A stretch of 64,000 bases of DNA, from assembly GCA_001775395.1 (NCBI GenBank), contig MEWP01000069.1, positions 16,114 to 80,113 of the forward strand, read 5' to 3'. Below, piece after piece: positions 9,203-62,770 of this stretch. The position numbers were made by a program, and so were the translations under genes. The first letter of the stretch is position 1. Each line of letters begins with the position of its first letter. Below the pieces are notes generated by a model that was not told where the DNA came from, did no database searches, and was given only the letters and a program-made list of their open reading frames with translations. This DNA comes from a candidate division Zixibacteria bacterium RBG_16_53_22. Lineage in GTDB: Bacteria > Zixibacteria > MSB-5A5 > UBA10806.

Positions 9203-9247
9203 TAGCGGCGCAGGGATTCGAACCCCGGACACGAGGATTATGATTCC
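9203..9247 (-). repeat. tRNA-Met 3' fragment, att core (distal end of island III)
   Basis: Exact 45-bp match to 62697-62741 (anticodon stem through discriminator base). Confidence 0.93.
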
Positions 9248-9536
9248 AAGCCAAAGATCTACAGTAAGTTAAAAGGATATAATAGCATGCGAAATGCGAG
9301 TGGAAAATATTTGCTCCGGAGTCTTAACTTAAAGAAACAACACACTACCAAGGTGATTCAGAACGTGGCCAGAATGCCAAACAAAACGCTTTTGAGCACC
9401 ATGGAAAAGCAGACGAGTGCATTCGTTTCAATTCGCCGCCAAACGCTGGATCGCCCGACAAAAGCCAAAGGCGTGTATCAAATTTGTGCTATGAAGTCAT
9501 GTAAAATACAACCCTCCTCTATAATACCTGACTAAG

Positions 9537-9588
9537 CCGTCTCCTAACTCAAATCTCCTATTTATGCAAATTCATTTGAACCGAAACA
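9537..9588 (-). mobile_element. orphan IS3-family left end (copy 3)
   Basis: TGTTTCGGTTCAAATGAATTTGCATAAATAGGAGATTTGAGTTAGGAGACGG; gapless alignment with the other copies. Confidence 0.65.
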
Positions 9589-9905
9589 GTGCCAGGCGTG
9601 TTACGGATTCGCACCGGATCTTCCATAGTTTTTGACTGGCATTGGGCGACCCTTGTTGCAACCCGGTTGCGGAACTCGTCTCGTAGCTCCCGCCATGAAT
9701 AATCATTATTATTTTAGAATATCGTTAGCCGGTCGGAAATTCTTATAATTAGCTCTGTAGCTCAAAAAAATAATTAGTGCTGGGAAAAGACCGATCGGAG
9801 CGGCCCGATGAATCGGCATAGCCCTGGAGGGAATAAATTTATAGATCGGGATTGCCAGCGAATATACAATCCAAAAAACGACGAATAGAGAAATGTAACG
9901 GAATC

Positions 9906-12158
9906 CTAATCAGTTATACCTAATCGTGTGAGCATTCTCACAAATTGTGGTTTTAGGCGGACATTGTCAAAAACCGGCTCGACATTAATTTCGCACAACC
10001 AGCTATCTCTCATTTGCCATGCTTTCTCCAGCCATCGGAAACCCTGTTCTTCGTTACCCAAAACAAAGCACATTAATGAGAGGCTATACGGTGAGATATA
10101 GGCCGAAGCGGATTTCTCCAGCAGGTTTTTGAGCAGATCTTCCGCATTTTCGTTCCTGCCCATTTTCGTAAAGGCAATTCCTATCCATGCATCCAGAACG
10201 GGTCTCCGGTTCAGGTTGCTATTTTTCTCTTGATGAAATTCTTTAAGGGCCGCTTCATGCATGTCTTTTTCCAGATATACCCTGCCTAGCAATTCATGAA
10301 CCAAACTGAAATTGGAATCTAGTTCGACCGTTTTTTGAAGCGCGTCAATGGCTTCATCATACCGTCCCGAATAATAATAGATAGTGCCTAAATCACGATT
10401 AATGGCCAATGACAGAGGATCCAATGACAATGCCTTCCTGATTTCGGCGATAGCCTCACTGAACTGGGCCTTATACATAAAATATAAGGCATACCAGTGA
10501 TGGGCTGTAGCGTATTCGGGGTTAAGGTCAATGGCCTTCTGAAATTCTCTTTTGGCGCCGGCCCAATCAAAGCCATAGTTGAGGACAACAGCTAATGATG
10601 CATGAGCCTCTGCCAGAGTATCGTCTATCTCAATTGCCCTGATCGCCATCCTTTTTGCTTTTTCGTAAGCCTCATTCGGATCACATTCGGCATAATCCGG
10701 TAATGCCCTGAAAGCATCCGACAGGCCTGTATAGGCAGAAGCATACTCATTGTCCAATTCGATCGCTCGTTCGAAGTAGGATATCGCTTTTCCTAAACTC
10801 TCTGCAGTTCTCATATTCCAGAAATATCTGCCTTTCAGATATAGGCAATATGCATCAAGGTTTCCGGTAGGGCATTTGACTTTCTGCCATGTGTTATCAT
10901 CCTCCATTTTTACCTCGAGCTTATCCGCAATTGAAAGAGCAATTTCTTCCTGAATCGCAAACATATCTCCCATCACCCTGTCGTACCGCTCAGACCAAAT
11001 ATGATATCCGCTTTCAGCGTCAATCAATTGCGCCGTAATTCTCATCCGGTTATCAAAATAGCGAACACTACCTTCCAGAATTGATTGAACGGCTAGTTTT
11101 CGTCCGACTTCCTTAATATCGAATGATGAATCCTTGAAGGTAAATGATGATGTTCGGGCGACGACGCGAATGCCCTTCATTTTCGCCAAGCCATTGATTA
11201 TCTCTTCTGCGATACCCTCCCCGAAATATTCCTGGCTTCTCTGCGGGCTCATGTCGCGGAAAGGCAGGACTGCGATCGATGGTATGAGCTTTTCAGCGAC
11301 TGCGGCTGCCTCATGTTCTATTTTATCAATGTTTTCGCGCAGTAACTTCAGGTCGGCGGTGATTTCGTCTGCACTTTGATAACGGGATGCCGGATCCTTC
11401 CTTAACGCCTTATCGAGTATTTGCTGAAATCCATCGGGGGCGTTCAGGACAAACGTCATGATGGGCGGGGGATGTTCGTTAATTATCGAATAGAGAATGG
11501 CGGCCTGGTGCGCATCCTTGAAAGGCAGCTGACCAGTTGTCATCTCGTACAGAACGATACCGGTTGAAAACAGATCCGAACGTGCATCGACTTCTTCACC
11601 TCGCGCCTGCTCCGGTGACATGTAGGAATATGTCCCGGCTATCGATTCCTGTCTTTCGGGACATGCTATATTCAAGCGCACAGCCAGGCCGAAATCCATT
11701 ATCTTGATTTGATCCCCGGTTGTAACCATTATATTGTCTGGCTTGATATCTCGATGAATGATCCCTGCTTTGTGCGCTGCGGATAATCCGCAGCACAGCT
11801 GGATGGCAAAATCCAATATCTGATTGAAAGACAAATTACTTTCTTTGATCAGGCTGGAAAGCCGGCGACCCCTGACGTACTCCATGGAAATGACTGGATA
11901 GCCCTGGTAATTGAATATCTCATAAATCGTAACTATATTGGGATGATTGAGAGACGCCGCGGTCTGAGCTTCGATTTCGATAGTTGATTCCGGGTCGCAT
12001 TTGGAATCGCTGGTCAGACGAAAAAGCTTGAGGGCCGCCTGGCGCTTGAGATTGAGATCTTCCGCCAGGTAGACCTCGCCTAAGCCACCGTGACCGACTA
12101 GTCCCTGGATACGGTAGTGGGAGATGATGAGACCGGCCTCAAGTCTGCAGGAATTCAC
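9906..12158 (-). CDS. Hanks-type Ser/Thr protein kinase with TolB-N-like domain and TPR repeats
   Basis: GHGGLGEVY, AALK, HRDIKPDN and DFG motifs; SIAVLPF...QEYFGEGIAEEII domain; C-terminal TPRs. The GTG start is uncertain. Confidence 0.9.
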   Translation of the reverse strand: MNSCRLEAGLIISHYRIQGLVGHGGLGEVYLAEDLNLKRQAALKLFRLTSDSKCDPESTIEIEAQTAASLNHPNIVTIYEIFNYQGYPVISMEYVRGRRLSSLIKESNLSFNQILDFAIQLCCGLSAAHKAGIIHRDIKPDNIMVTTGDQIKIMDFGLAVRLNIACPERQESIAGTYSYMSPEQARGEEVDARSDLFSTGIVLYEMTTGQLPFKDAHQAAILYSIINEHPPPIMTFVLNAPDGFQQILDKALRKDPASRYQSADEITADLKLLRENIDKIEHEAAAVAEKLIPSIAVLPFRDMSPQRSQEYFGEGIAEEIINGLAKMKGIRVVARTSSFTFKDSSFDIKEVGRKLAVQSILEGSVRYFDNRMRITAQLIDAESGYHIWSERYDRVMGDMFAIQEEIALSIADKLEVKMEDDNTWQKVKCPTGNLDAYCLYLKGRYFWNMRTAESLGKAISYFERAIELDNEYASAYTGLSDAFRALPDYAECDPNEAYEKAKRMAIRAIEIDDTLAEAHASLAVVLNYGFDWAGAKREFQKAIDLNPEYATAHHWYALYFMYKAQFSEAIAEIRKALSLDPLSLAINRDLGTIYYYSGRYDEAIDALQKTVELDSNFSLVHELLGRVYLEKDMHEAALKEFHQEKNSNLNRRPVLDAWIGIAFTKMGRNENAEDLLKNLLEKSASAYISPYSLSLMCFVLGNEEQGFRWLEKAWQMRDSWLCEINVEPVFDNVRLKPQFVRMLTRLGITD

Positions 12159-12282
12159 TGCAAATCCAACTTCATTATCTCTGTATTGCCGCCCATTCGA
12201 ACCGGCAATTCTGAGATTGGGATATTATATTGTTCCGACGGATTCCCCACGTCGGGATTTAAGATGACATGGGGATCAACCT

Positions 12283-12582
12283 CTATTGCAAGGGATTCTG
12301 CACTATGGCATGAATCCCATACTCGGCAAGATTATCATGTTTGGTAATGTCATTACCCCCGCTGTCAACACCAACCAAGACGACGGTTGATGGTGCTGCG
12401 GCATTCTGGGGATTTTGGGCGAAATAAATCCTTACAGAGACACATTGATCTTGGCTAATAATTGAAAGAATTTTCTTTGCGTCAAATAAAATACCCTCAT
12501 TTTTTTGAAAACTCTTAGCTTGCGCCCCGTTATAGGCAGCCACCCAATTTCTTGCGGTAGCCGCGTCAATATCATGCGGCAT
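12283..12582 (-). CDS. small hypothetical protein (99 aa)
   Basis: AGGAG RBS before the ATG at 12582; sequence AxxWxxxY...ILFD...VRIYF...VVLVGVDxxGND looks like a real fold; function unknown. Confidence 0.65.
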   Translation of the reverse strand: MPHDIDAATARNWVAAYNGAQAKSFQKNEGILFDAKKILSIISQDQCVSVRIYFAQNPQNAAAPSTVVLVGVDSGGNDITKHDNLAEYGIHAIVQNPLQ

Positions 12583-13013
12583 CTGCTTTCTCCTTTCCAA
12601 GAGGAATTTTCTTGAACATTCGGGCGACCTTTGATGGCCGCATAATCCAATAAATAATTCGAGCGGGGTCGAATTTGACCTGTCGATGCTGCGGCGACCA
12701 GCAATCTAAATCGATCTCCGGATCAATTCCAGAAATCAATCCGCTTTAGTCAAAGGACCAGAACCATAGAAAACTATTCGGCGGTTATAACTTAAATCTA
12801 TTACAAATAAATCCGTAATTAGTGATTTAGTCAAGAGTTATTTTGAGTATTTCTCTGCATCAGAGCCGAAATTTCGAATCCCAGCGAGAAATTAAGAGAA
12901 AGGCTATGGGCCCTGCAAATGATAAGGTTGGGGCCGGCATTAGCCAATTTCAAAATTCGCGAGTCAAAAAAGAACCGCCCGAACCAATCCTCAAGCGGCA
13001 ATTTACAGAAAGG

Positions 13014-14615
13014 CTACCCCTCCGAGACGATCCGCTTGTAGTCGAGCACAATGTTGTATCGATTGATCTTGTTGACAAGCCCCTTGCGGGTTAGGCCCAA
13101 CACCCGCGATGCCTGCAGGACATTCCCCCGGCTCTCAGCCAGGGTCTTGATGATGAGGTCCCTTTCCACCTTTTCGACAACCGCCTTAAGTTCACCCTTA
13201 TATAGGCCGCTTGGGGCCTCGGACGCAGCGGCCTGCGCTATGCCCGGCGAAAGGTCTCGAACCCCGATGATCCCGTTCGAACCGCAGGTAACCGCGGCCC
13301 GTTCGATCTCGCTTTCCAGTTCTCTGATATTGCCCGGCCAGTTGAATTGCATCAGCAGGTCCAGGGCCCCGGGCGATATAGATAATTGGCCTCTGTTTAA
13401 TTTGATCTTTATCTTATTGACAAAATGATTGACCAAGAGGGGGATGTCCTCGCGGTGCTCGCGCAAGGAAGGCAGCTCGATCGCGAAAGTGTTCAGCCGG
13501 TAGAACAGGTCCTCGCGGAAGGTCTTAGCCGCGATCTGCTCGGCCAAGTTGCGGTTGGTGGCGGAGATGACACGGACCTTAACCGTCTCGGTCTTGGTGG
13601 CGCCGATCGGGCGGATCTCGCCGTTTTGGATGACCCGCAGGATGGCGACCTGAGTGGATAGTGGGGCGTCGCCAATCTCGTCGAGGAAGATCGCGCCACC
13701 ATCGGCCTCCTTGAAGAGGCCGATCTTGTTTCTGATCGCCCCGGTGAACGAACCTTTCATGTGCCCGAACAGCTCCGATTCGAGCAGCGTCTCGGTCTTC
13801 AGGCCACAGTTGATGATGACCAAGGGCTTGTCGCGCCTGTCGCTGTTGTAATGAATCGCCCTGGCGACCAGGTCCTTACCGGTGCCGGTCTCGCCGGTGA
13901 TCAGAACCGGGGCATCGGTAACGCAGTAGCGCGAGACCAGCGACAGAACCCGCTTCATCCCCGCCGATTTTCCGATGATGTTCTCGAAAGCGAAACTCGA
14001 TCCGAGCTCGCTTTTTAACTGAAGATTCTCCTGTTTCAGCTTTTTCCGCGTCATTTCCAGGAGCTCGTTGGCCCGGGTTAATTCCTCGAGGAGCCTGGCG
14101 TTGACGAGGATCTGTGCCGACTGCGGGACGAGGATGCCCATCAGCCGGCAATGTTTTTCCTCAAACGCGGGCTTAGCGGTGTTTCTAATCAATATGGTAA
14201 GCCCGATGATTTCCCCGCGGACGGTCAGGGGATAGCATAACGCGCGCTTATGCAACCCTCCGCGAGAATCCATCCCATAGAAACGGGGGTCTTGGTCCAG
14301 GTCATCGATTTTAAGGACGCCCCCGTTTTTGAGCATCCACCCGAGGAATTGGCTGCTGATCTGACCCGGAAGATCATCTCGCTTGCTGTCCCGAAATCGC
14401 ACTACCGTGGACAAGGCGTCCATCCGCGAATTTACGACGAGGCTGATCGTGCCCTGGTCGGAATCGGTGAGCGCCACTATCTCCGAAATCAAAACATCCA
14501 TAATATGATTGGTTTCACGAATTCCGCAGATCTTGTCGATCACGTTGTTGATGGCGATGAGGTGATCGAGCTTTTCTTTAGCGTTTGCATCCACCATGGT
14601 TTCGTCGGGCATCAT
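13014..14615 (-). CDS. GAF-domain sigma54-dependent activator (NifA/FhlA-like, Fis HTH)
   Basis: GETGTGKD, ESELFGHMKGSFTGA, FLDEIG, WPGNIREL, C-terminal HTH; N-terminal GAF domain. Confidence 0.92.
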   Translation of the reverse strand: MMPDETMVDANAKEKLDHLIAINNVIDKICGIRETNHIMDVLISEIVALTDSDQGTISLVVNSRMDALSTVVRFRDSKRDDLPGQISSQFLGWMLKNGGVLKIDDLDQDPRFYGMDSRGGLHKRALCYPLTVRGEIIGLTILIRNTAKPAFEEKHCRLMGILVPQSAQILVNARLLEELTRANELLEMTRKKLKQENLQLKSELGSSFAFENIIGKSAGMKRVLSLVSRYCVTDAPVLITGETGTGKDLVARAIHYNSDRRDKPLVIINCGLKTETLLESELFGHMKGSFTGAIRNKIGLFKEADGGAIFLDEIGDAPLSTQVAILRVIQNGEIRPIGATKTETVKVRVISATNRNLAEQIAAKTFREDLFYRLNTFAIELPSLREHREDIPLLVNHFVNKIKIKLNRGQLSISPGALDLLMQFNWPGNIRELESEIERAAVTCGSNGIIGVRDLSPGIAQAAASEAPSGLYKGELKAVVEKVERDLIIKTLAESRGNVLQASRVLGLTRKGLVNKINRYNIVLDYKRIVSEG

Positions 14616-14826
14616 TTCTCCGGGTAATGTATTATCACTATATTATGACCGTTAATTGGATTGTCAAGCGAAAGTACCCCTCCACTGCAATGCAGCACCG
14701 GCACCCACCGCCGGACCCAAATTAGATACTAAGTACCTAAATTTCTCGGCCCGACGCTCTCGCGCTCCCGTATGCAAGTTTCTGATTATCAATGAATTAT
14801 GGGCGAATCCTCCGGAGCATTCGGTT

Positions 14827-14842
14827 TGGCACGCACTCTGCA
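14827..14842 (+). promoter_or_regulatory. sigma54 -24/-12 promoter
   Basis: TGGCACG-CACT-CTGCA, one mismatch to TGGCACGNNNNTTGCW; divergent from the sigma54 activator and 85 nt upstream of the lipoprotein ATG. Confidence 0.75.
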
Positions 14843-14926
14843 ATTAATGCGGGCGACAGTGAAAGAGAAGAAAGAGCCGAAGGTCAAATAACCGAACCAA
14901 CAAACCAACAAAAACGGAGGAACGAA

Positions 14927-15595
14927 ATGAACACTAAGAGAACAGTACTGAAGGGCATCGCGGTCATCGCGATCCTCGCGGCTGGCTGCTCGAACAACGG
15001 CGGGATCACCGGCCCGCAAGCCCCCATCGAGGAAAGCTCCTATGTCTCTAACACCACCCCTACCCCGACCGTGGCGAAGGATGCGGCCCAAGCACCCCGG
15101 CAGTGGCTGGAGCTCACCGGCAAGATCGTCCGCAGCGAGATCGAGGGCGGCTGCTGGTACTTCGAAACTGAGAAGGAGCGTTACGAGCCCCGCTTCGACC
15201 GTTTCGACGCCACCATCTTCTCCGGGGCGACTCTGAAAGTCAAGGGTTACGTCGATGACCTGGTCACCAGCATCTGCATGATCGGCCCAGTGCTACAAGT
15301 CGTGGCATACGAGGTTTTCTACCCGGCTGCCAAAACGATGCCGAGTGGGGGGAATCTGGTTACCCTTACCGGCACGCTCGGCTTGACCAAGGACGGGTGC
15401 TACTTCGTCGCCACCACCAAGGAACACATTGCGCTGGAGCTTCCTATCTGCCCGTCCCCGCCACTCCTGGGATCCCTGATTGTCGTCACGGGGACCTGGA
15501 GCATGCTCGACTATGTGCCGTGCGGCATGGAGCGCCTCTTGAACGTCGAAACCATCACCTTCATCGGCCCACCGCCCACGCCTGTCTATTGGTAG
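14927..15595 (+). CDS. lipoprotein with two tandem Cys-pair domains (DUF5818-like by my recognition)
   Basis: GGAGG RBS, MNTKRT...LAAG-C lipobox; repeated LTGxxxxxxxxGCxxxxT...xxVxG...C units. Confidence 0.8.
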   Translation: MNTKRTVLKGIAVIAILAAGCSNNGGITGPQAPIEESSYVSNTTPTPTVAKDAAQAPRQWLELTGKIVRSEIEGGCWYFETEKERYEPRFDRFDATIFSGATLKVKGYVDDLVTSICMIGPVLQVVAYEVFYPAAKTMPSGGNLVTLTGTLGLTKDGCYFVATTKEHIALELPICPSPPLLGSLIVVTGTWSMLDYVPCGMERLLNVETITFIGPPPTPVYW

Positions 15596-15614
15596 AACCG
15601 AACCCGACTTTTTC

Positions 15615-15640
15615 AGGCGGCCCCAGAGGCCGCCTTTATT
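15615..15640 (+). terminator. probable intrinsic terminator
   Basis: AGGCGGCC-ccaga-GGCCGCCT hairpin followed by TTATT, 20 nt after the lipoprotein stop. Confidence 0.65.
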
Positions 15641-15790
15641 ATTTTATCCAAACGCGGTTTCCGGCATACGAAGAAGATTCCCAATTTGAGTATTAAGTAC
15701 ACAAACCAGGCAACAGGTCCAACCATCCTGCGCTGTCATAATCCCATGCCATCACCAATCTTAATTCTATGTTTGTCTAGCCGCGGAACC

Positions 15791-15805
15791 GGGCACGAAG
15801 CATGC
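15791..15805 (+). promoter_or_regulatory. possible second sigma54 promoter
   Basis: GGGCACG-AAGC-ATGC keeps GG-N10-GC spacing with two mismatches to consensus; 55 nt upstream of a small ORF. Confidence 0.4.
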
Positions 15806-15859
15806 GTCATACATCACCGGAAACGGATAAGATACCGATTAGGAGAAACGGAGGAAAAA

Positions 15860-15985
15860 ATGTTTACTAAGTTTAGTTACCTGGATGAGGATTCGAAGTT
15901 TTTCATCGTGGCCTCAGTTGTGTGTACGCTGATACTTTTGGCCATCGCCGCCTCTGCGATTCTGCCCGGCATTCGACGATTCTAA
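15860..15985 (+). CDS. 41-aa single-pass membrane peptide
   Basis: GGAGG RBS; MFTKFSYLDEDSKFFIVASVVCTLILLAIAASAILPGIRRF has one hydrophobic helix followed by basic residues. Confidence 0.5.
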   Translation: MFTKFSYLDEDSKFFIVASVVCTLILLAIAASAILPGIRRF

Positions 15986-16048
15986 ATCCGGGCGCATCGC
16001 TCGGCCGAGCAGGGGTTGATGCCACCGGCCCGATTGAGCAGCCGTCTT

Positions 16049-16252
16049 GCTGGTGTTGGCCCCCCGCTCGGTGTCGCCCTTGAGCCTCTTCTTGCCGGCC
16101 TCCAGGAAAGCCTTGCTCCAACGATAATACAAATTGGGGATGATCCCTTCACGGCGACAAAGCTTGGCAATGGAAGCCTCCCCCTTGAGCCCCTCTAAGA
16201 CTATCCGGATCTTCTCGTCGGTGGAAAACTTGCGGCGGGTCTTCCTCTCCAA
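16049..16252 (-). pseudogene. IS3-family transposase OrfA, truncated (no OrfB)
   Basis: RKFSTDEKIRIVLEGLKGEASIAKLCRREGIIPNLYYRWSKAFLEAGKKRL is a typical IS3 OrfA HTH; similarity stops after about 68 aa. Confidence 0.85.
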
Positions 16253-16270
16253 CCCAAAAGCTAATCACAA

Positions 16271-16322
16271 CCGTCTCTAAACTGAAACCCTCTGTCTGTC
16301 CGGATTTATTAGAACCGAAATC
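16271..16322 (-). mobile_element. IS3-family left end (copy 4), still attached to orfA
   Basis: GATTTCGGTTCTAATAAATCCGGACAGACAGAGGGTTTCAGTTTAGAGACGG lies 18 nt before the orfA start; this linkage identifies the motif. Confidence 0.78.
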
Positions 16323-16450
16323 CCTCTCAAATACTCGCCCGGCCTACTTGATATATTGAGTAACTTGAATAGACGGAAGGACGGCAAAGTCTTCGGCACA
16401 TTTACCAAACGAGGGAAAGAGCTTCCCCAGTGGTCCGAATGGTGGGTGGG
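16317..16450 (+). pseudogene. internal fragment of tyrosine integrase
   Basis: About 94% identical (8 mismatches in 134 nt by manual alignment) to 62224-62357; the catalytic C-terminus is replaced by 45 unrelated nt. Confidence 0.85.
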
Positions 16451-16495
16451 AGCGTAAGCTTCCCTGTCAAGTAGACAATTCATAAGTAGAGGTTT

Positions 16496-16629
16496 TGGCG
16501 GTTTTTTGTTCTCAAAGTGTTCCCATAATGTTCCCACGGAGGATTTTGCCGATATGGAAAGGCTTGTAAGTCCTTGAAAGATGATAGCGGCGCAGGGATT
16601 CGAACCCCGGACACGAGGATTATGATTCC
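16496..16629. repeat. tRNA-proximal island end (alpha), copy 2
   Basis: 134-bp direct repeat of 62608-62741 with 2 mismatches; includes TGTTCCCA x2 and the att core. Confidence 0.92.
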
Positions 16630-16793
16630 CAGCCGAAGAAATATAATAAATTACGGGTAATCATCGACTTGTATACGGCCAGAGAAAAATGAGGATTTTT
16701 GCTGATGGCATTAAGAGGACCATTCATGCTCGATGAAATGCAGAGAATGGCCAATTAAGTATTTTGAGCACCAGGCAGCACCGGAAAGCAGCA
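16563..16793. repeat. 231-bp direct repeat spanning the att core and tRNA-distal island end (beta), copy 1
   Basis: Matches 55172-55402 with 3 mismatches. Confidence 0.93.
16585..16629 (-). repeat. tRNA-Met 3' fragment, att core (island II/III junction)
   Basis: Exact 45-bp match to 62697-62741. Confidence 0.93.
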
Positions 16794-16819
16794 TTGCATA
16801 TCAGGCTGCAACCTCCGTC

Positions 16820-16996
16820 TTACTTCATCAGCACCATCTTCTTCGATTCGACCTTATCGCCAGCCTTGAGCCTATAAAAGTAGATTCCCGATGACTGCCC
16901 GCCAGCATCCCAAATCACCTGATGCTCTCCAGCGGGCATTATTCCTTCAGTCAACGTCTCGATCTTGCGGCCGAGGATATCGAAGATGTCGATGGA
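16820..16996 (-). pseudogene. orphan C-terminal FlgD-Ig/T9SS-type-A-like secretion tail fragment
   Basis: Translates SIDIFDILGRKIETLTEGIMPAGEHQVIWDAGGQSSGIYFYRLKAGDKVESKKMVLMK*; preceded by an in-frame stop with no start. Confidence 0.8.
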
Positions 16997-17340
16997 TTAA
17001 TCAAAACGGCCCCAACCTCACTCTCCCAGAAATCCGGCGAGCTTTGAATTCAAGGCTGTGTCCCAATATAAAGCCATTAACGGTAAAAGCTTAAGGATAG
17101 TGGGGTTGATAGGTTGGGCAGGGCCCTCAAAAGGCCTCGGGACTGTTAGCCGCCGCCGCGATGACGTTGGTCGGCGAGGGAAGCACCCTGACCCCGGCAG
17201 GTCGCGACAGATGGAGGTGAAAAGTCCCTCCGCGGCCGATTTTGCCTTTCCAGGCTCCCACGACATGCAAATCCGCGACGCCCGAACGGATTGACGCCAT
17301 TATCCGGGCCGTGGCGCAAACATGTCCCGTCGCTATGATA

Positions 17341-17369
17341 TTGACAATCGTTACTTCTATCGTTATTCT
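17341..17369 (+). promoter_or_regulatory. sigma70-type promoter for the two-component operon
   Basis: TTGACA-17 nt-TATTCT, 33 nt upstream of the kinase ATG. Confidence 0.7.
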
Positions 17370-17402
17370 CCCGCATGAACCTTCAGTCCCGGTCGGCTTG
17401 AA

Positions 17403-21479: not shown

Positions 21480-21480
21480 T

Positions 21481-23835: not shown

Positions 23836-23836
23836 A

Positions 23837-26827: not shown

Positions 26828-26831
26828 TCGA

Positions 26832-28004: not shown

Positions 28005-28027
28005 TAATTTTGGGAAAGGAGACCGTT

Positions 28028-54923: not shown

Positions 54924-55137
54924 TATGATACTTCATACTGCCGATGACACCGTTTGTCCAGCCGTTAATTTGCCTTTGAGCACTTCATAAGAAGCTTTCC
55001 CGTTTGAGGATCAGAGTCGCGTAATTTAAGACCCTTAGCTTCCAGCGTATTTCCCAGTCAGTCTTCACCGTCATGCCTGCCACCAGTTAACCCTCCAAAT
55101 CTTATCAATAGTGTCAATCGAAATCAGAAGTTTCGCA
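54924..55137 (-). mobile_element. internally deleted IS481-family-like element (about 214 bp)
   Basis: Minus strand reads MAGMTVKTDWEIRWKLRVLNYA (IS481-like N-terminus), then in another frame GKASYEVLKGKL (C-terminus-like); imperfect 26-bp inverted ends ending in TGACA. Confidence 0.5.
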
Positions 55138-55171
55138 GTTGACGTGGCGGTATTATGGATAAATGTAACTT

Positions 55172-55402
55172 CTTGTAAGTCCTTGAAAGATAATAGCGGC
55201 GCAGGGATTCGAACCCCGGACACGAGGATTATGATTCCCAGCCGAAGAAATATAATAAATTACGGGTAATCATCGACTTGTATACGGCCAGAGAAAAATG
55301 AGGATTTTTGCTGATGGCATTAAGAGGACCATTCATGCTCGATGAAATGCAGAGCATGGCCAATTAAGTATTTTGAGCACCAGACAGCACCGGAAAGCAG
55401 CA
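55172..55402. repeat. 231-bp direct repeat (beta end), copy 2
   Basis: Matches 16563-16793 with 3 mismatches. Confidence 0.93.
55194..55238 (-). repeat. tRNA-Met 3' fragment, att core (island I/II junction)
   Basis: Exact 45-bp match to 62697-62741. Confidence 0.93.
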
Positions 55403-55611
55403 GTCAATGGTATTGTAAAGCAAGCGGTTGAACTCTTTGTGAATTAGCCGTAACAAAGGGCGACCGGCATACTCTGATCCTCTGCCGACTGGTTTTTGCC
55501 CACTTGAACATTATGATTCTCATATTACTGACTTTCGGGTCCCAATCCCGAAATACTCTTTCCAGAGCTATATTCAATGTGCCACTGACAACTACTGTCA
55601 GTGGGCAAAAT

Positions 55612-55645
55612 AAAAAACGGGCACCCGAAGAAATCCTGGTGCCCG
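55612..55645 (-). terminator. probable intrinsic terminator of the Rrf2 gene
   Basis: CGGGCACC/GGTGCCCG 8-bp stem followed by T6 on the minus strand. Confidence 0.6.
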
Positions 55646-55668
55646 CCCGAATGACTAAAAGAGGGGCC

Positions 55669-56124
55669 TTAAGCCTTGAGAACTTTCGCCTTGCGGCCAT
55701 TGCGGCCCGGGTAGAACTTCTCGTAAGGGATATTCCCGAAGTTGACGGCCCCCAAATCCCGCACTAACCCTCGTTTAATCCGATCAAACTGCTTAAAGGC
55801 CGGGCATCTGCCCTTGCGGTGGCCGGACCGCTTGGCCTCAGGTATGGTGCAGTTGGCTGGCTCAAGGGGGCCGTCGATGGCCTCGATGACCTGCAGGAAA
55901 GTAATATCCTTCCGCGGCCGGGCCAGTTGGTAACCCCCCGCCACCCCCCTTACGCTCTTCAGGAATCCCTGCCGAACCAGCGCCTTGAGGACCTTGGCCA
56001 GGTATTCCCGGGGGATACCCTCGGCTCGGGCGATCTCGTTGATCGAGGCCAGCCCCCTGTCCTCCAGGGAGGCCACGAAGAATAGGGCGTGCAGGGCGTA
56101 GTCAGCTTTCTTGGTGATTCTCAT
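55669..56124 (-). CDS. Rrf2-family transcriptional regulator (RsrR-like ligand pattern)
   Basis: ADYALHAL, YLAKVL, SVRGVAGGYQLAR wHTH; D8, H12, C92, C107. Confidence 0.9.
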   Translation of the reverse strand: MRITKKADYALHALFFVASLEDRGLASINEIARAEGIPREYLAKVLKALVRQGFLKSVRGVAGGYQLARPRKDITFLQVIEAIDGPLEPANCTIPEAKRSGHRKGRCPAFKQFDRIKRGLVRDLGAVNFGNIPYEKFYPGRNGRKAKVLKA

Positions 56125-56254
56125 CGCGATTCTCTCCCTATTTAGACAATTTCAAGGTTCTTCTCCCAAACGATTTATGGCGGTAACGGGCGGGCGATGT
56201 CAATGAAAATCAGCGGCCCGTTGCCACTAACACGGGTTTAGTGGCAATCAAGAC

Positions 56255-56276
56255 GGGCCGCTCTTGCGAGCGGCCC
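56255..56276 (-). terminator. hairpin downstream of the FG-GAP gene
   Basis: GGGCCGCTC-GCAA-GAGCGGCCC on the minus strand; weak U-tract. Confidence 0.5.
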
Positions 56277-56298
56277 AGCAACCCGGTATGGACAATTT

Positions 56299-58836
56299 TC
56301 AGTCAGAGGTTCCGGTCTTGCCTCTTGATTTTAATACCGGGCGCAGAATCGGAGCTATCGGCTTTTCCTCCTTGACGGGCTCCGAAATGACCTTTTCAGG
56401 CGTTTCTTTGCCTTTGAGTTCGCGTGAAATGACTGGCCCCCTGCCTGCTGGAGTGCAATCGTCGCAATAGAGCAGCGCAGGCTGGCCCCCCTTGAGGTAT
56501 GACACATAGTATGTAATGTCTATCCCATTGGTGCTGCAGGTGCCGTTGACATCCATGGCGGCATAGAACGGGAATATTAGCGGCGGGCAGTCGCAGGAGT
56601 CTTTGGGAGCGCTGCCGCCTTTAAGATAGGTGACTCCGTATGTAACATCGATACCGTTCGGCGCGCCGCTGCCGTTGATATCACCGGGGAGATAGGGGCA
56701 GCCGCCACCGAGAAGATTGATTAAGATCGAAACATTGTTGGAGTTCTCATTTGCCACTGCCAAATCATTATCCCCATCGCCGTCAAGATCGGAGGCGAAT
56801 ACAGAGCGGGGATATTTATCCGCGCCATAATTGCCTCCCGGGTAGTATGTGCCAGAACCGCCATTTATTAAAACCGTGACGTTACCCGACCAATTGTTTG
56901 CGGTCGCCAGGTCATTATCGCCGTCACTATCAAAATCGGAGGCAATAATAGAATTGGCACCATCCGCAGCCAAATAGTTGACTGCCGCCTGATAGGTTCC
57001 ATCGCCATTGTTTATCAGGACGGACACGTTGTCGGAAATCCAGTTTGCCACCGCCAGGTCGTTATCACCATCGCCATCAAGATCGGAGGCAAAAATGGAT
57101 TGGGGATCATTCCCTACCCCGTAATTGACTGCCGCCTGAAATGTCCCGTTACCATAGTTCTTCAGAACCGAAATGTTGTCGGAATTTGAATTTGCTACCG
57201 CTAAATCTTTATACCCATCGCCGTCGAGGTCGGATGCGAAGATGGAATAAGGCCAGGATCCCGCACCATAATTGACCGCCGCCTGAAAAGTCCCATCACC
57301 ATTGTTTCTCAAAATGGAGACATTACCGGAAGTTCTGTTTGCTGTCGACAGATCGTTATCGCCATCGCTATCCAGATCAGTGGCAAAGACGGAGGCGGTG
57401 CCGGGTCCGGCAGGATAATTGACGGCAGCCTGGTATGTCCCGTTGCCGTTGTTTATCAGGACTGATACATTATTGGAATTCAGATTTGCAACAGCCAGAT
57501 CATTATCCCCATCACCGTCAAGATCGGAGGCGTACACCGAATAAGGATTGTCTCCGGTCCTATATTTGATAGCCGGCAGATATATCCCATCACCGTTGTT
57601 CATGAGGATCGAGACGCTGTCGTAAATTGCATTTGTCACGGCCAGGTCGTTATCTCCATCACCGTCAAGGTCGGATCCAAAAACGGACCGTGGGGCGTTT
57701 CCGGCGGCATAATTAACTGCCACGCGATATGTTCCATTTCCGTTGTTATTAAAGACCGAGACATTGCTGGAAGCGACATTTGCCGCCGCCAGGTCATTAT
57801 CTCCATCGGCGTCAAAATCGGTAGCGACGATGAAACGGGTACCGGATCCCGCTCGGTAATTGACAGCTGTCTGATATGTCCCATCACCGTTGTTCTTCAA
57901 GACCGACATGTCGCTGTTATTCCAATTGGCTGTCGCCAGGTCATTATCCCCATCACCATCAAGGTCGGAGGCATATATGGAAAAGGGGGCGTCACCCGTC
58001 TCGTAATTAACGGCTGTTTGAAATGTACCGTTTCCATTGTTCTTCAATATCGAGGCGGAGCCCATTGCTATAAAATTTGCCACAGCCAGGTCGTTATCGC
58101 CGTCACCATCGAGGTCGGAGGCAAAGACTGCGGCGGAACCGTCACCCGCATCATAATGTACCGCCGGTATATACGTGCCATTGCCGCTGTTTATCAAAAT
58201 GGCGACGTTGTCAGAATCACCATTTACAGATGCCAGGTCTTTGTCGCCATCGCCGTCAAGATCAGAAGCAAAGACGGAAACAGCGCTGCCTCCAGTCATG
58301 TAATTTATGGCCGCCTGGTACGTGCCATTGCCGTTGTTCTTCAGCACCGAGATGTTGTTAGAAATGCTGTTTGCCACGGCAAGGTCGTTATCCAAATCGC
58401 CATCAAGATCGGAGACATAAATGGAAGCGGGGTAGTCTCCCGCCCCATAATTGACAGCCGACAGATATGTGCCATTACCGAAATTCAACAGGATAGAGAT
58501 ACTATCGGAAGATGAATTTGCCACCGCCAGATCATTATCACCATCGCCGTCAAGATCAGAGGCAAAGACGGACAAAGGACCATCTCCCGCAGCGTAATTG
58601 ACAGATTGCAGAAAAGTGCCATCACCGATGTTCATCAGGACCGAGACGTCGTCGGTATAACCATTTGCCGTGACCAAATCTTTGTCTCCGTCGCTGTCAA
58701 GATCGGAGGCAAAGACGGAATAAGGAGAGGTTCCCGTCCCATAGTCTATCCGTGCGCTGAAGATAGGCTCGAAGCCAAGAGAACTGGCAACAATGGCAAG
58801 CATTGCGATAAGCAAATTAATCACAAGGCGTTTCAT
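56299..58836 (-). CDS. secreted FG-GAP/VCBS repeat protein (14 repeats) with C-terminal dockerin-like domain
   Basis: Signal peptide; 14 DxDxDGDxDLxxxN units (two 7-blade propellers inferred); GDINGSGAPNGIDVTY...DVNGTCSTNGIDITY. Confidence 0.9.
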   Translation of the reverse strand: MKRLVINLLIAMLAIVASSLGFEPIFSARIDYGTGTSPYSVFASDLDSDGDKDLVTANGYTDDVSVLMNIGDGTFLQSVNYAAGDGPLSVFASDLDGDGDNDLAVANSSSDSISILLNFGNGTYLSAVNYGAGDYPASIYVSDLDGDLDNDLAVANSISNNISVLKNNGNGTYQAAINYMTGGSAVSVFASDLDGDGDKDLASVNGDSDNVAILINSGNGTYIPAVHYDAGDGSAAVFASDLDGDGDNDLAVANFIAMGSASILKNNGNGTFQTAVNYETGDAPFSIYASDLDGDGDNDLATANWNNSDMSVLKNNGDGTYQTAVNYRAGSGTRFIVATDFDADGDNDLAAANVASSNVSVFNNNGNGTYRVAVNYAAGNAPRSVFGSDLDGDGDNDLAVTNAIYDSVSILMNNGDGIYLPAIKYRTGDNPYSVYASDLDGDGDNDLAVANLNSNNVSVLINNGNGTYQAAVNYPAGPGTASVFATDLDSDGDNDLSTANRTSGNVSILRNNGDGTFQAAVNYGAGSWPYSIFASDLDGDGYKDLAVANSNSDNISVLKNYGNGTFQAAVNYGVGNDPQSIFASDLDGDGDNDLAVANWISDNVSVLINNGDGTYQAAVNYLAADGANSIIASDFDSDGDNDLATANNWSGNVTVLINGGSGTYYPGGNYGADKYPRSVFASDLDGDGDNDLAVANENSNNVSILINLLGGGCPYLPGDINGSGAPNGIDVTYGVTYLKGGSAPKDSCDCPPLIFPFYAAMDVNGTCSTNGIDITYYVSYLKGGQPALLYCDDCTPAGRGPVISRELKGKETPEKVISEPVKEEKPIAPILRPVLKSRGKTGTSD

Positions 58837-59041
58837 AACGACCTCCGGGATGAGGAAAATTTATGGCCTAAAGTTATTTCTTTCCTTTAAGTATTAATAA
58901 GGTACTGCCACGCCCAAAGATGTAAGATCAAGGATGTAATATTAATATAATATCGTTTCAAAAATTAACAAGAGGATTTAACGGATAGCGTTACCTCCAA
59001 GGTATCATTTCGGTGCCTTCGGGTCACCCTACCCGGTTTTT

Positions 59042-61897
59042 CTATGGCGCCGGAGGGCAATCCTGGCAATAAAGCAGGGCCGCCTGCTGGCCTTTTAGGT
59101 ATGTTACGAAATAGACGATATCTATACCATTGAAGGCACAGTTGCCGTTTACGTCTCCAGCAGCATAGAAGGGGAACGCCATCGGCGGGCAATCGCAGGA
59201 GTCTCTGGGAGCGTTGCCGCCTTTCAGATAGGTGACTCCGTATGTAACATCGATACCGTTCGGCGCGCCGCTGCCGTTGATATCACCGGGAATGTAGAGA
59301 CATCCAAATGATTCCCGAACGACCAGGGAAACCGGCATCGGGGCTGAAGGCGTTCCCGGGTCGTTCGAATTTATCTGGATATGACCGTTATAGATGCTGT
59401 CGGGAACGGACGTAGCATCAAGCGTGATCTGACCGACCAAACTATCGCCCGGGGCGATCGTGTCGGCGGACGGGGAAACGAATAGCCAGGTGTTGAGGGC
59501 CGGCGATGACTCGATGGCAGATAAGGATACAAAAAGCGGGGCCTGGCCCGAATTTTTGACAACAAAATCGTGCGACTCAATTTCACCCTGCAAAAGTGTA
59601 TCGATTATCGAAGCGGGGTAAAATGACATGTGGGGTGCCATACTCAACTCAATCGAAACATCATCGATATATATGCCATCCTCTTGGCTTGATCCGTCGG
59701 AATCGAGGCGAAAACGTAGACGAGCATCGGATTGCCCAACCAGGGCCGCCAGATCGAAACTGCGCTCCACAAATGCCGGCATGGAACCGGTAATCGGCGG
59801 GCCGAGTCGAATCCAGTTTATGCTATCCGGAGAACCCTCGACATGGAGCGAATCCCCTCCGGCCGGTAGCGTACCCCTGACCTGAAATCTCAAATTGGCG
59901 GCTGCTGCATGGCTCAGGTCGAGATCAAAAAGCGATTCCAGGAAGCTGTCCGTATTGTCCCGGTATTGCGTGTTCGGGGAATCAGCAACGGAGAGGTTTC
60001 CTGTAGATGAGTAAAGAGCGGTCAGGCCCCAGAAAGCAAATGTCCCTCCGGTTTTCCAATAACCCAGGCCGTCTTCAAATGAATCGGCAAACGAAGACGC
60101 CCCTGGCGAGACAGTGTATGGGTGCATCTGGCCCCCGAGCGGCCAGAAGGCGTGGGTTTCCCCGTTCCGGACGGCCTTGATAAAATAGTAAATGGTGCCG
60201 CCGAGTTCGCCCGGTATCTGGGACGTGAAATTAAAGCTATCGACAGATATCATCGCAAGCCGGACAAAATCCCCGACTTCCCCCGCCCGGTAATAGAGGA
60301 AAACGCTGTCGAGTTCCCCTGTAACGGCGGTATTGATAATCAGCGGGTCATTGGGGGTGGCGAATATTATGGGACGGTGATCGATGATAATATCGCCGGC
60401 GGGATGGGAATAAATGGCCCGGCCGACATCGAGGATCCCGGAACCATAGGCGTTATCGGGGGCATCGAACCTGTCCGCAGTTGCCATCAGAGCCTCGCGG
60501 ACCATCATAGGAGTCCAATTGGGGTGCGCAGAAAATAGCACGCCGCATGCGCCTCCGACAAGGGGCGTTGAGAGCGATGTGCCGGAGGCGGTGTAGTAGC
60601 CATGAATATCGTAAGGACTTACACAAGTTGTGCCGACTCCCCGGGCGCAAACCTCGGGCTTGATACGCCCATCATATGTAGGGCCCCATGATGAGAAGCC
60701 GGCAAGTATGCCTTGCGAGTCGACAGCTCCACAGGCAATGACAGAATCGCCATCAGCGGGGGCGACGATGGAGCCGCTTATATTACCCTCGTTGCCCATG
60801 GCAGTGGCCACGGCAATTCCATTGTAGGCGGCCAGGTCGGCGGCGATTGTCACGATAGTGGAATTGCCATCGATCTGGCTGTAATCGTAATCGCCTTGCC
60901 CGGAGTCGAACCAGCGATATCCCAGAGAAGCAGAGATAACGGAAGCGCCGATGGAGTCGGCCCACTGCGCCCCGGCGGCCCAGTTGTCCTCCTCGATATG
61001 CCGCTCGCTGGAAATATCCTCCGTCTTGGCCAGGACGAAATGGGCCAAGTACGAGGGCCCATATAAAAATCCGCTGGCCTCACCACCGAGCGTGGACCAG
61101 GTCATGGTGCCGTGATCAGGTTGCCCGCCAAGATCCTGGCTGGGATCGTAGTCAGTGTTATTGTCATGGTTAATGAAATCGTATTGGGCAATCAGCCGTC
61201 CGCCGGAGATGATCGCCTGGAAAGCATCATGCCCTTGCCTGTAGCCGGTGTCCATCATACAGACGATCACGCCCTGGCCTTTGAATCCCAGCTCGTGCGC
61301 CGAGATGACATTAATCTGTTCAAGCTGGGCTTGCGACTGCCCGTAGTTGAGCGATATAAGGTTAGCATCAGGAATGATCGGCTCGGTGGGCAGCTCGGCG
61401 CCCATGCGCGCATATGAAACCGGTTTTATATAGCGCACGAATGGGAAAGCCGCTATGGCTGCAAGCTGCCCGCCGGTAGCGTAAACCGAGATGGCATTGA
61501 ACCATTTAAGCTCATGCCGCAATTCGGCGCCGGTGGAAAGCACGGCATCGATATGCGACCGGCTGAGAGGCAAGTCACGGAAATCGAGGATATTTTCCTT
61601 TCCGCGGGATTTGAGCCGGCGATCCAACGTTGAAGGGGAAAGGGTTGACTGCGCCAAATTGAGGGCATTTATGTATTGAACCTGACCTGAAATTCCCTTA
61701 TCAGTGAAAAAGACGATGACAGGAATTGTGGACTCAATCGGAATTTGACTAAGGCTCAGAGCCAATCCTGGTGAGATTGTCGGAATCTCCTTTTCCATGA
61801 AAAGCGTAGTGGCATCATTCCATGAAAGGGGAACATCGCTTCCCACAACCGATAATGGACAGAGCAACGTCAAAAATATAAGAGCATGTCGAATCAT
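59042..61897 (-). CDS. secreted S8 (subtilisin-family) protease with C-terminal dockerin-like domain
   Basis: Signal peptide; MMDTG (Asp), DHGT (His), GTSLSTP (Ser); dockerin-like tail. Confidence 0.92.
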   Translation of the reverse strand: MIRHALIFLTLLCPLSVVGSDVPLSWNDATTLFMEKEIPTISPGLALSLSQIPIESTIPVIVFFTDKGISGQVQYINALNLAQSTLSPSTLDRRLKSRGKENILDFRDLPLSRSHIDAVLSTGAELRHELKWFNAISVYATGGQLAAIAAFPFVRYIKPVSYARMGAELPTEPIIPDANLISLNYGQSQAQLEQINVISAHELGFKGQGVIVCMMDTGYRQGHDAFQAIISGGRLIAQYDFINHDNNTDYDPSQDLGGQPDHGTMTWSTLGGEASGFLYGPSYLAHFVLAKTEDISSERHIEEDNWAAGAQWADSIGASVISASLGYRWFDSGQGDYDYSQIDGNSTIVTIAADLAAYNGIAVATAMGNEGNISGSIVAPADGDSVIACGAVDSQGILAGFSSWGPTYDGRIKPEVCARGVGTTCVSPYDIHGYYTASGTSLSTPLVGGACGVLFSAHPNWTPMMVREALMATADRFDAPDNAYGSGILDVGRAIYSHPAGDIIIDHRPIIFATPNDPLIINTAVTGELDSVFLYYRAGEVGDFVRLAMISVDSFNFTSQIPGELGGTIYYFIKAVRNGETHAFWPLGGQMHPYTVSPGASSFADSFEDGLGYWKTGGTFAFWGLTALYSSTGNLSVADSPNTQYRDNTDSFLESLFDLDLSHAAAANLRFQVRGTLPAGGDSLHVEGSPDSINWIRLGPPITGSMPAFVERSFDLAALVGQSDARLRFRLDSDGSSQEDGIYIDDVSIELSMAPHMSFYPASIIDTLLQGEIESHDFVVKNSGQAPLFVSLSAIESSPALNTWLFVSPSADTIAPGDSLVGQITLDATSVPDSIYNGHIQINSNDPGTPSAPMPVSLVVRESFGCLYIPGDINGSGAPNGIDVTYGVTYLKGGNAPRDSCDCPPMAFPFYAAGDVNGNCAFNGIDIVYFVTYLKGQQAALLYCQDCPPAP

Positions 61898-62177
61898 CGC
61901 GGCTCCCTTAAAGTGAGTGAAGTCAAAAAAGCAAAGCTACTCCAAAGATAATACCGTTTGATGGTTTGTCAAGCCAACCTCAACAGGTATTGGATGACTG
62001 GGCAATGGCATTAATGGGCCCTTTATTAATTTAAATTATATTTAATTGACGCAAATTCAACTATTGGCTGGGGACAGTTATTTGAAGCCTGTTTCCTATA
62101 TTGTCTGGCAACAAGTTACGGGCGGTGTCCCAAATTCGTGCTATAAAATTAGGCGCAAAATACTGAGCTACCCAAAT

Positions 62178-62229
62178 CTTTCTCTTAATTCAAACCCTCT
62201 ATCTGTCCAGATTCATCTGAACCGAAATA
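62178..62229 (-). mobile_element. orphan IS3-family left end (copy 6)
   Basis: TATTTCGGTTCAGATGAATCTGGACAGATAGAGGGTTTGAATTAAGAGAAAG; fused to the integrase remnant. Confidence 0.7.
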
Positions 62230-62571
62230 CCTCTTAAATATTCGCCCGGCCTAATTGATATATTGAGTAACTTGAATAGACGGAAGGACGGCAAAGTCTT
62301 CGCCCCCTTTACCAAACGAGGGAAAGAGCTTCCCCAGTGGTCCGAATGGTGGGTTGGCCGATACATCTCAAATACGTTAACATCTATCGGACTACCATGG
62401 GCCACTTGTCACACATTCAGGCACACGTTCGCCAGCCATTTGGTGATGGCCGGGGTGTCGCTATTTACAGTCCAGAGATTATTGGGCCATGCCCAAATAG
62501 ACACCACGATGATCTACGCCCATCTTGCCGAGGATCACAGTGCAGAAATGATGGCTAAATTGCCGTATTGA
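62224..62571 (+). pseudogene. tyrosine integrase, C-terminal catalytic fragment (N-terminus lost at the IS end)
   Basis: [14 protein letters not shown]...[40 protein letters not shown] has HxxR, H and Y but lacks the first catalytic Arg; in-frame TGA at 62218. Confidence 0.9.
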
Positions 62572-62591
62572 AGGGGGCAAAAAGAGGGGCA

Positions 62592-62619
62592 AACCGCTGT
62601 CGAAAGATGGCGGTTTTTT
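62592..62619 (+). terminator. intrinsic terminator between the integrase and tRNA (possibly bidirectional)
   Basis: AACCGCTGTC-GAAA-GATGGCGGTT followed by T-tract. Confidence 0.7.
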
Positions 62620-62741
62620 GTTCTCAAAGTGTTCCCATAATGTTCCCACGGAGGATTTTGCCGATATGGAAAGGCTTGTAAGTCCTTGCAAGATAATAGC
62701 GGCGCAGGGATTCGAACCCCGGACACGAGGATTATGATTCC
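62608..62741. repeat. tRNA-proximal island end (alpha), copy 1
   Basis: 134-bp direct repeat of 16496-16629 with 2 mismatches. Confidence 0.92.
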
Positions 62742-62770
62742 TCTGCTCTGACCAACTGAGCTACGCCGCC
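62697..62770 (-). tRNA. tRNA-Met(CAT), elongator type; CCA not encoded
   Basis: GGCGGCG TA GCTC AGTTGGTCA GAGC A GAGGA ATCATAA TCCTC GTGTC CGGGG TTCGAAT CCCTG CGCCGCT A folds as a full 74-nt cloverleaf. No C1:A72 mismatch or three G:C anticodon-stem pairs, so not initiator; Ile2 is not fully excluded. Confidence 0.95.

Follow-up and report, generated by a model that had tools for sequence, protein, structure and literature searches.

A tandem array of decayed integrative islands, probably accreted at a tRNA-Met gene of a Zixibacteria genome

Introduction

What produced a locus in which one intact tRNA-Met gene is followed by three displaced copies of its own 3' end, with unrelated genes between the copies? 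The locus lies in a stretch of 64,000 nucleotides (the window) from candidate division Zixibacteria bacterium RBG_16_53_22 (GenBank assembly GCA_001775395.1, contig MEWP01000069.1, positions 16,114 to 80,113 of the forward strand). A preliminary description, made from the sequence alone, had read it as three islands inserted by one tyrosine-integrase family that left no working integrase behind. Our analysis favors, with a probability of about 80%, a tandem array of decayed integrative islands that arose by repeated integration of one tyrosine-integrase family at an anticodon-centered site in tRNA-Met. At least four integrations are recorded in this 53-kb row of islands. The array is thus larger and more mosaic than first described, while accretion was right in outline. 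Islands arranged in tandem at tRNA and tmRNA genes are familiar from earlier work, and the window locus works like those systems. Because the mechanism itself is textbook knowledge, the value of the locus lies in annotation and ecology, not in a new concept.

Results and Discussion

Displaced copies of the tRNA-Met 3' end

The intact target gene, tRNA-Met(CAT), lies at 62697-62770 on the minus strand and was identified by ARAGORN and Rfam (RF00005, 65.4 bits), with ends at 62696/7 and 62770/1 depending on the caller. No structured RNA besides this tRNA was detected in an Rfam scan of the window. A 41-nt probe from the 3' part of the gene matched exactly at 9203, 16585, 55194 and 62697, with 0 matches in shuffled sequence and 0 copies expected by chance. 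All four copies point in one direction, the three displaced ones lying on the 3' side of the tRNA. The exact block measures 45 nt (end ...GATTATGATTCC). In tRNA sense, as read off the alignment, its first base lies 3 nt into the anticodon stem's 5' strand and its last is the discriminator base. Probe and alignment thus confirm the 45-bp copies at 9203, 16585 and 55194 reported in the preliminary description, as well as their start in the 5' strand of the anticodon stem.

We refer to these blocks as cores, all on the minus strand. Core 1 (62697-62741) is part of the regenerated target and forms junction j1. Core 2 (55194-55238) forms junction j2. Core 3 (16585-16629) forms junction j3, with a left flank like that of j1 and a right flank like that of j2, and core 4 (9203-9247) forms junction j4. 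The cores delimit island I (55194-62696), island II (16585-55193) and island III (9203-16584), at core-to-core spacings of 7503 nt (55194 to 62697), 38609 nt (16585 to 55194) and 7382 nt (9203 to 16585), respectively. A conserved trailer of ~25 nt extends leftward from all four cores. The tRNA identity ends at the same base, GATTCC, at 3 window junctions and at 6 junctions of other assemblies at which no tRNA follows (L001, L095, L097, L102, L107 and L108; loci of other assemblies carry L numbers). The locus therefore combines an identity block that has a fixed boundary in the anticodon stem-loop, the mark of an anticodon-centered site, with an intact target and direct-orientation displaced 3' fragments, the mark of a tRNA island. 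A sensitive search of the window, including positions 1-9202, returned no further decayed cores, tRNA copies or arms.

Arms flanking the cores

The cores are bordered by two kinds of arm, P on the left and P' on the right. The P arm of island I (62572-62696, plus strand) consists of a terminator hairpin (62591-62616), tandem GTTCCCA repeats (62631-62637 and 62642-62648) and the ~25-nt trailer beside the core, a layout matched in 15 family loci. That of island III (16496-16584, plus strand) is 97.8% identical to it and carries the same repeats at 16519-16525 and 16530-16536; the left half of its terminator is deleted. Island II retains a P-arm remnant of the GTTGACG repeat type (55060-55193, plus strand), which aligns with the P arms of L096 and L103; the island's integrase gene is deleted. 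A further P-arm remnant, with TGCCCxCGGCAxGCCCACGAGCA repeats and trailer, precedes core 4 (9122-9202, plus strand). Positions 9131-9247 are 84% identical over 117 nt to the P arm and core of L104 (ATGCCCA type), and the arm is severed near 9125 by an insertion sequence (IS)-like end.

On its tRNA-distal side, each of the four junctions thus carries a P arm of the family, and it is for this reason that we count at least four integrations. The three islands of the preliminary description have to be extended by a fourth element, represented by 9122-9202. Since the left flank of 9203 is a family P arm, this position is an internal junction and not the end of the array; the true distal end is either deleted or located beyond the window. 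Note that the four P arms carry three repeat types, indicating that several members of the family took part.

The P' arms fall into two types. Type a is found in island I (55239-55402, plus strand) and island II (16630-16793, plus strand), and these two arms are 98.8-98.9% identical. To the right of 55194 and 16585 the identity is 98.9% over 177 nt, the arms differing at 2 positions. The island II arm is 78% identical to an arm in L108. Type b, in island III (9248-9420, plus strand), is 82-83% identical to an arm in the metagenome contig L107. The motifs quoted in the preliminary description are present, and its view that the distal arm of island III is a diverged relative of the other two was correct. 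Exact sequence sharing extends over 162 nt between j2 and j3 and over 81 nt between the P arms of j1 and j3, and over only 46-52 nt between the other junction pairs. Junction j3 therefore unites the j1 P arm with the j2 P' arm, which is the attachment site (attP) that excision of island I would be expected to form. The integrase-P-arm module is common to islands I and III, with 95-99% identity and one and the same cut point, and island I has its P' arm in common with island II. This suggests that island I was built from, or homogenized with, the surroundings of j3 (16585).

The tandem 7-8-nt repeats of the P arms, ~55-75 nt from the core, vary by integrase lineage (GTTCCCA, GTTACCG, GTTGACG, TTGTTGTC, ATGCCCA and GTTAGCG). 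We consider them putative arm-type binding sites of the integrase, and as such they may provide a specificity code for arm binding. A motif CCAnnG...GCAGAGnnTGGCCA is common to P' arms that are otherwise unalignable. It lies ~120-145 nt from the core, at 16730-16760, 55339-55369 and 9345-9375 of the window, and occurs also in L095, L097 and L102.

The element family in related genomes

The nearest relatives of the window's integrase fragment are in Zixibacteria metagenome-assembled genomes (MAGs) and sediment metagenomes. Intact integrases with an Int_N/SAM_5 and a Phage_integrase domain are encoded in L002, L095, L096, L097 and L099, that of L002 being a tyrosine integrase of 351 aa. An HTH_17 excisionase gene is located directly upstream in four of the five intact copies, and a D5_N/DUF5906 primase-helicase is present in L002 and L099. 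In L002, L096 and L099 the integrase (int) and excisionase (xis) genes stand beside tRNA-Met in the layout of the window; L003 is arranged likewise but is cut at the contig start. In L002, L003, L096, L098-L101, L103, L104, L122 and L123, as in the window, a full tRNA-Met is encoded on the strand opposite the integrase gene, with ~130 nt between its 3' end and the end of that gene. The spacer is conserved, consisting of the terminator hairpin, 2-3 tandem 7-8-nt repeats at fixed distance, the ~25-nt trailer and the core. Thus, the proposal that one tyrosine-integrase family targeted this site repeatedly is supported by intact int and xis genes beside tRNA-Met in the same layout, by homologous arms and by the fixed boundary.

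In L001, L095, L097, L102, L107 and L108, the integrase-P-core unit is followed by DNA other than the tRNA. Overall, ~40% of the family junctions with an integrase beside the core are not followed by a tRNA, and these are probably internal array junctions, or else attP sites of free circles. Of an integrase, the metagenome contig L108 retains a very small remnant; it is followed by a P arm, a core with 3 mismatches and the P' arm that resembles 16630-16793 (78%). After this arm, 6.9 kb are 87.6% identical to window positions 17012-23904. Because L108, an independent assembly of a related organism, reproduces the j3 join, this join is older than the split of the two lineages.

On the other side of its j3-like junction, L108 encodes MobA-, MobB- and FdhD-like molybdenum-cofactor proteins (2516-4466, read from translations) beside the molybdoenzyme island, a neighbor that differs from island III of the window. 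The closest MAG contains, well within a 704-kb contig, an integrase fragment (residues 218-351) with a decayed core (L001, 9905-10527), while its actual tRNA-Met is on another contig (L088, 3667-3742). Either a very long array or a rearrangement that moved the remnant would account for this. We rejected the idea that the L001 fragment shows the same truncation as the window, as it begins at residue 218. Directly downstream of the tRNA-Met in L088 lies a gene for an 866-aa Ser/Thr kinase (714-3314) that is 49% identical to the kinase of island III.

We found no paper on genomic islands in Zixibacteria in the literature, and the element family therefore appears to be undescribed. It comprises tRNA-Met-specific integrative elements of Zixibacteria and neighboring uncultured lineages, with a clear attP layout and lineage-specific arm repeats.

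Proposed accretion and the observations against it

These features can be accommodated by the following model. An incoming circle would carry the order P'-core-P, with the integrase gene adjoining P. As the known mechanism of tRNA-directed integration suggests, recombination within the 45-nt block would restore the tRNA from the element's copy, and the older 3' half together with the older islands would be displaced away from the tRNA. Later IS insertions and deletions would then have removed every integrase and excisionase and reshuffled the cargo. Unless a related integrase acts on it from another part of the genome, the array would now be fixed in place.

A number of observations weigh against this reading. 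The distal end of the array is not seen within the window, and island II contains no integrase remnant at all by tblastn. The arms swap partners: P type a occurs with P' a and P' b, and P' a occurs with P types a and d. Since the same arms have different partners, the intervals are not simply three intact copies of an element. The joins at j2 and j3, as assembled, cross the 162-nt exact repeat. Finally, a 45-mer scan of 185,579 genomes yielded 14 tRNA-Met loci, of which 0 were syntenic with the window flanks. The comparison of related MAGs that the preliminary description proposed thus recovered the same integrase-tRNA layout, but no locus with the window flanks, no empty site and no presence/absence polymorphism.

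The missing empty site would also be expected if no integration had occurred, the cores being tRNA fragments spread by homologous recombination or IS activity and the intervals native chromosome. The kinase gene directly after tRNA-Met in L088 points in the same direction. However, a kinase identity of 49% fits a paralogue. Every core is positioned between family-specific P and P' arms that are also seen beside intact integrases, and the boundary falls at the same base in independent assemblies. We therefore consider this explanation highly improbable. The narrower proposal that island III is native chromosome was likewise rejected, given that the kinases are only 49% identical and that the window kinase gene lies between two cores.

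The 162 nt shared exactly by j2 and j3 exceed usual short-read k-mers and might have allowed the assembler to thread population variants or an excised circle via near-identical junction repeats. The real chromosome would then have fewer or reordered islands, the alternative join placing islands III and I side by side in the chromosome and island II on a circle. We regard such a chimera as improbable, because the copies are distinct: the integrase fragments differ by 5% and by a 205-nt deletion, and there are 2 differences between the P' arms. Moreover, L108 has the same join of integrase fragment, P arm, core, P' arm and island II, and the other junction pairs share no more than 46-52 exact nt.

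Integrase fragments and IS-like ends

As the preliminary description had stated, the only integrase sequences in the window are two IS-truncated fragments, recovered by tblastn with a full-length integrase at 62227-62568 and 16320-16451. The fragment in island I (62227-62571, plus strand) corresponds to residues 238-351 of the 351-aa integrase of L002. The open reading frame (ORF) at 62263-62571 matches only positions 124-170 of the Pfam Phage_integrase profile, the last 47 positions. Compared with the L002 protein, the HxxR and tyrosine region is preserved, whereas the first catalytic arginine, the lysine and both N-terminal domains are gone. Thus, only a C-terminal fragment adjoins the regenerated tRNA in the window, while a full-length integrase occupies the same position in L002, L096 and L099. 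The fragment in island III (16320-16451, plus strand) covers residues 238-281; ~205 nt after it, including half of the terminator, are deleted. The two fragments (int') differ by 3 amino-acid changes in 44 residues, showing the absence of constraint. A tblastn search of the window with the family integrase and excisionase detected no other integrase sequence, no N-terminal integrase part and no xis; the fourth element, too, lacks an integrase remnant by this search.

Both fragments begin after the same kind of IS-like end, a member of a 77-nt repeat family (end ...GAACCGAAACA). A solo copy (62152-62229, plus strand) abuts the integrase fragment of island I. The fragment of island III adjoins an IS3-like remnant (15914-16322, minus strand), in which an IS-like end (16245-16322) accompanies a transposase orfA that has an HTH_Tnp_1 domain and runs out of frame after ~70 aa. 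Of the features of an IS3 element, only the orfA remnant was seen; orfB is absent, with no remnant of it found in the window, and only one kind of end is present. The window thus has no working integrase, excisionase or transposase. As the integrases are fragments, orfA is out of frame and orfB is absent, nothing in the window is able to move the DNA of the array.

The repeat family has six copies in the window (961-1041, 9049-9124 on the minus strand, 9516-9589, 16245-16322, 30868-30945 and 62152-62229), and further copies were found inside the family elements L106 (2345-2413) and L095 (5290-5356, minus strand). All are of one kind of end, a single copy adjoins a transposase orfA, and a ...CA terminus is present in 4 of the 6 window copies. 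Four of the six also lie within 500 nt of a core. The repeats may represent IS ends standing alone, or else a small mobile element with a preference for att regions. A pattern scan for the IS-like end in public genomes gave only chance matches in unrelated taxa. Apart from the copies in L106 and L095, nhmmer detected no extra ends, and a full-length IS or the other end was not recovered.

The copy at 9049-9124, which cuts the P arm of the fourth element, and the oppositely oriented copy at 9516-9589 enclose 540 nt (9049-9589) in which core 4 lies between the P arm of the fourth element and island III's P' arm, an arrangement resembling a miniature composite element. In the Zixibacteria MAG locus L084, an orfA of the same IS type (88-342, 80% identical) is located ~230 nt from tRNA-Met (572-645), in the opposite orientation relative to the window.

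Across the family, nine integrases are decayed and five are intact. The remnants (L001, L102, L106, L107, L108, L122, L123 and islands I and III) mostly retain the last 45-135 residues, and ~197 in L123. The cut points fall at residues ~155, 218, 229, 238, 238, 240, 265, 288 and 308, in a set that is biased by the search query. This distribution fits stepwise erosion from the cargo side, with the arm on the tRNA side protected.

Origin of the shared truncation in islands I and III

The two integrase fragments noted in the preliminary description are not independent remnants. Their identical start base and 95% identity point to duplication or mobilization, or to an insertion hotspot. One possibility, which we hold tentatively but take seriously, is that the integrase was cut only once by the IS and that a related integrase, acting in trans, subsequently placed a copy of the dead element at the tRNA, or of a circle bearing 16585, a junction that has both arms and thereby resembles a full attP. 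Island I would be the outcome. This would be a refinement of accretion, not an alternative to it. Both fragments begin at residue 238 and the alignment crosses the junction without gaps. The identity between islands I and III declines with distance from the core, from 100% in the core to 97.8% in the P arm and 95.2% in int', and j3 combines the 81 exact nt of the j1 P arm with the 162 exact nt of the j2 P' arm. The three displaced cores are still perfect, in contrast to the 3 mismatches in the core of L108, and islands without integrase that are mobilizable in cis have been documented elsewhere (PMC3146451). However, the IS-like ends of islands I and III are 76-82% identical (81.6% in the alignment across the junction, beyond which no identity remains). 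They are no closer to one another than to unrelated copies, and their identity is significantly below that of the neighboring int' (p = 0.013). Furthermore, no helper integrase is known: the protein database contained no near-identical intact candidate, and the best matches reach 90% identity at most and are themselves fragments.

The divergence of the two IS-like ends, as great between them as from other copies, is what would be expected if islands I and III were two related functional elements, each hit at the same site by a different IS copy, followed by loss of the N-terminal part. A CTTAAAT-like motif, albeit weak, is found at the flanks of several copies, and the integrase sequence GAAACGAAA, 8 nt before the junction, resembles GAACCGAAA of the IS end. 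In addition, the truncation points of the fragments in L107 and L122 are no more than ~10 codons away from this position, with no such IS end present. On the other hand, two insertions at the same base and in the same orientation would be required, together with two matching losses of the N-terminal part, and the target motif is missing at three copies. We consider independent decay at such a hotspot possible, if somewhat doubtful.

A more far-reaching interpretation of the same junctions, which we judge unlikely, is that the array is still recombinationally active without an integrase of its own. Internal junctions such as 16585, which have both arms, might act as a full attP, allowing circles to be re-inserted by the integrase of a sibling element. 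A circle with an internal junction could arise, for example, by recombination between IS copies, and island I might be such a product. The lineage-specific repeats of the P arm would decide which helper can act. If correct, an uncultured phylum would possess a cassette-like system that handles catabolic modules of several kilobases.

Comparison with known island systems

The array shares several features with the islands in the Islander database (PMC4383910): a regenerated tRNA with direct displaced 3' fragments, an identity block from the anticodon stem to the 3' end and, in the intact relatives, a tyrosine integrase beside the tRNA, of which the window keeps a C-terminal fragment. Anticodon-centered islands are the commonest class there (2083 of 3919), in the att sublocation scheme of Williams 2002 as cited in that paper. 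It lists 125 tandems, of which only 4 are arrays of three or more, and defines a tandem by each member having its own integrase. In contrast, the window array has a tRNA fragment per member but no working integrase. Since no member keeps its integrase, islands I and III having remnants only and island II and the fourth element none, the array falls outside the strict Islander definition.

The ssrA islands of Dehalococcoides (PMC3146451) are likewise tandem islands downstream of one small-RNA gene, with direct repeats of its 3' end and catabolic or respiratory cargo. Many lack an integration module and were proposed to be cis-mobilizable through accretion. They differ in using a CcrB-like serine recombinase with a 20-bp repeat in the T-loop of tmRNA, as opposed to a tyrosine integrase with a 45-nt repeat at the anticodon loop of tRNA-Met. 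Tycheposons of Prochlorococcus (bioRxiv 10.1101/2020.12.28.424599) also employ tyrosine recombinases at tRNA genes, with successive integrations pushing older elements inward. They leave fragmented integrases and partial tRNAs behind, and carry helicase/primase modules and adaptive cargo. They belong to a different phylum, however, and the window cargo is much larger (38.6 kb). The likeness is drawn from descriptions, not from integrase sequences.

With att sites on both sides and no recombination or transfer genes, the islands resemble cis-mobilizable elements (CIMEs), att-flanked islands without recombination genes that stand in tandem with related elements, known from site-specific accretion in the ICESt1 family (review PMC5704250; Pavlovic et al. 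2004, as cited in PMC3146451). Unlike in that family, neither the window nor the intact relatives showed any conjugation or mobilization genes. Pfam searches of ~55 window ORFs and of the ORFs of the intact relatives detected no relaxase, coupling protein or type IV secretion genes, and no capsid, portal, terminase or tail genes. By gene content the array is therefore not an integrative and conjugative element, an integrative and mobilizable element or a prophage. "Cargo-accumulation platform", the term used in the preliminary description, is a fair one for the locus, although the concept is established and not new.

Cargo of the islands and left flank

The cargo is wholly different among the three intervals by Pfam, as had been noted before. 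Island II contains two modules. Module a (17403-30376, plus strand; Pfam and NCBIfam) encodes a histidine kinase, a sigma-54 response regulator and a molybdopterin oxidoreductase / 4Fe-4S / NrfD / multihaem cytochrome complex. Module b (31671-54802, plus strand; Pfam and NCBIfam) is dedicated to anaerobic aromatic degradation, with 4-hydroxybenzoyl-CoA-reductase-like genes, class I BcrCBAD, a CoA ligase, Had, Oah, Dch and thiolases. BcrCBAD together with Dch, Had and Oah make up a class I (Bcr-type) benzoyl-CoA pathway. In NCBIfam, BcrB, Had and Oah exceed the equivalog cut-offs, and BcrC, BcrA, BcrD and Dch match their own models best, slightly under the cut-offs. As a complete class I benzoyl-CoA cluster and a molybdoenzyme respiratory module are both island-borne, this suggests that anaerobic aromatic degradation can be acquired horizontally in Zixibacteria.

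A seam separates the two modules (30868-31487, plus strand), where the IS-like end at 30868-30945 is followed by a 5'-truncated acyl-CoA dehydrogenase gene (30993-31487). Directly after the island II P' arm lies a pseudogene relic, recognized from its translation as the C-terminal sorting-domain end of a secreted-protein gene (16796-16990, minus strand). It is 73% identical at the nucleotide level to the end of an LVIVD gene that is cargo in L095. The relic and the truncation after the IS-like end at 30.9 kb together indicate that part of the cargo turnover is driven by IS or deletions rather than by the integrase.

The cargo of island III (9906-14615, minus strand; Pfam) comprises a Ser/Thr kinase with TPR repeats (750 aa), a 105-aa ORF and a GAF sigma-54 activator. 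The left flank of the array (1210-8838) is a coherent operon for reductive pyrimidine catabolism. Island I (55404-61897, minus strand; Pfam) encodes a 98-aa ORF, an Rrf2 regulator, an 845-aa FG-GAP repeat protein and a 951-aa subtilase.

Some minor features of the cargo genes were also noted. In module b, a second HGD-D / BcrAD pair (43457-44671 and 45579-46484) adjoins BcrCBAD and may represent a further reductase or dehydratase with its activator. In island I, the FG-GAP protein gene contains twelve repeats of 147 nt (49 aa) at 56748-58749. The 3' ends of the FG-GAP and subtilase genes (56447-56703 and 59049-59305) are 79% identical across 257 nt, indicating that the two proteins share a C-terminal domain.

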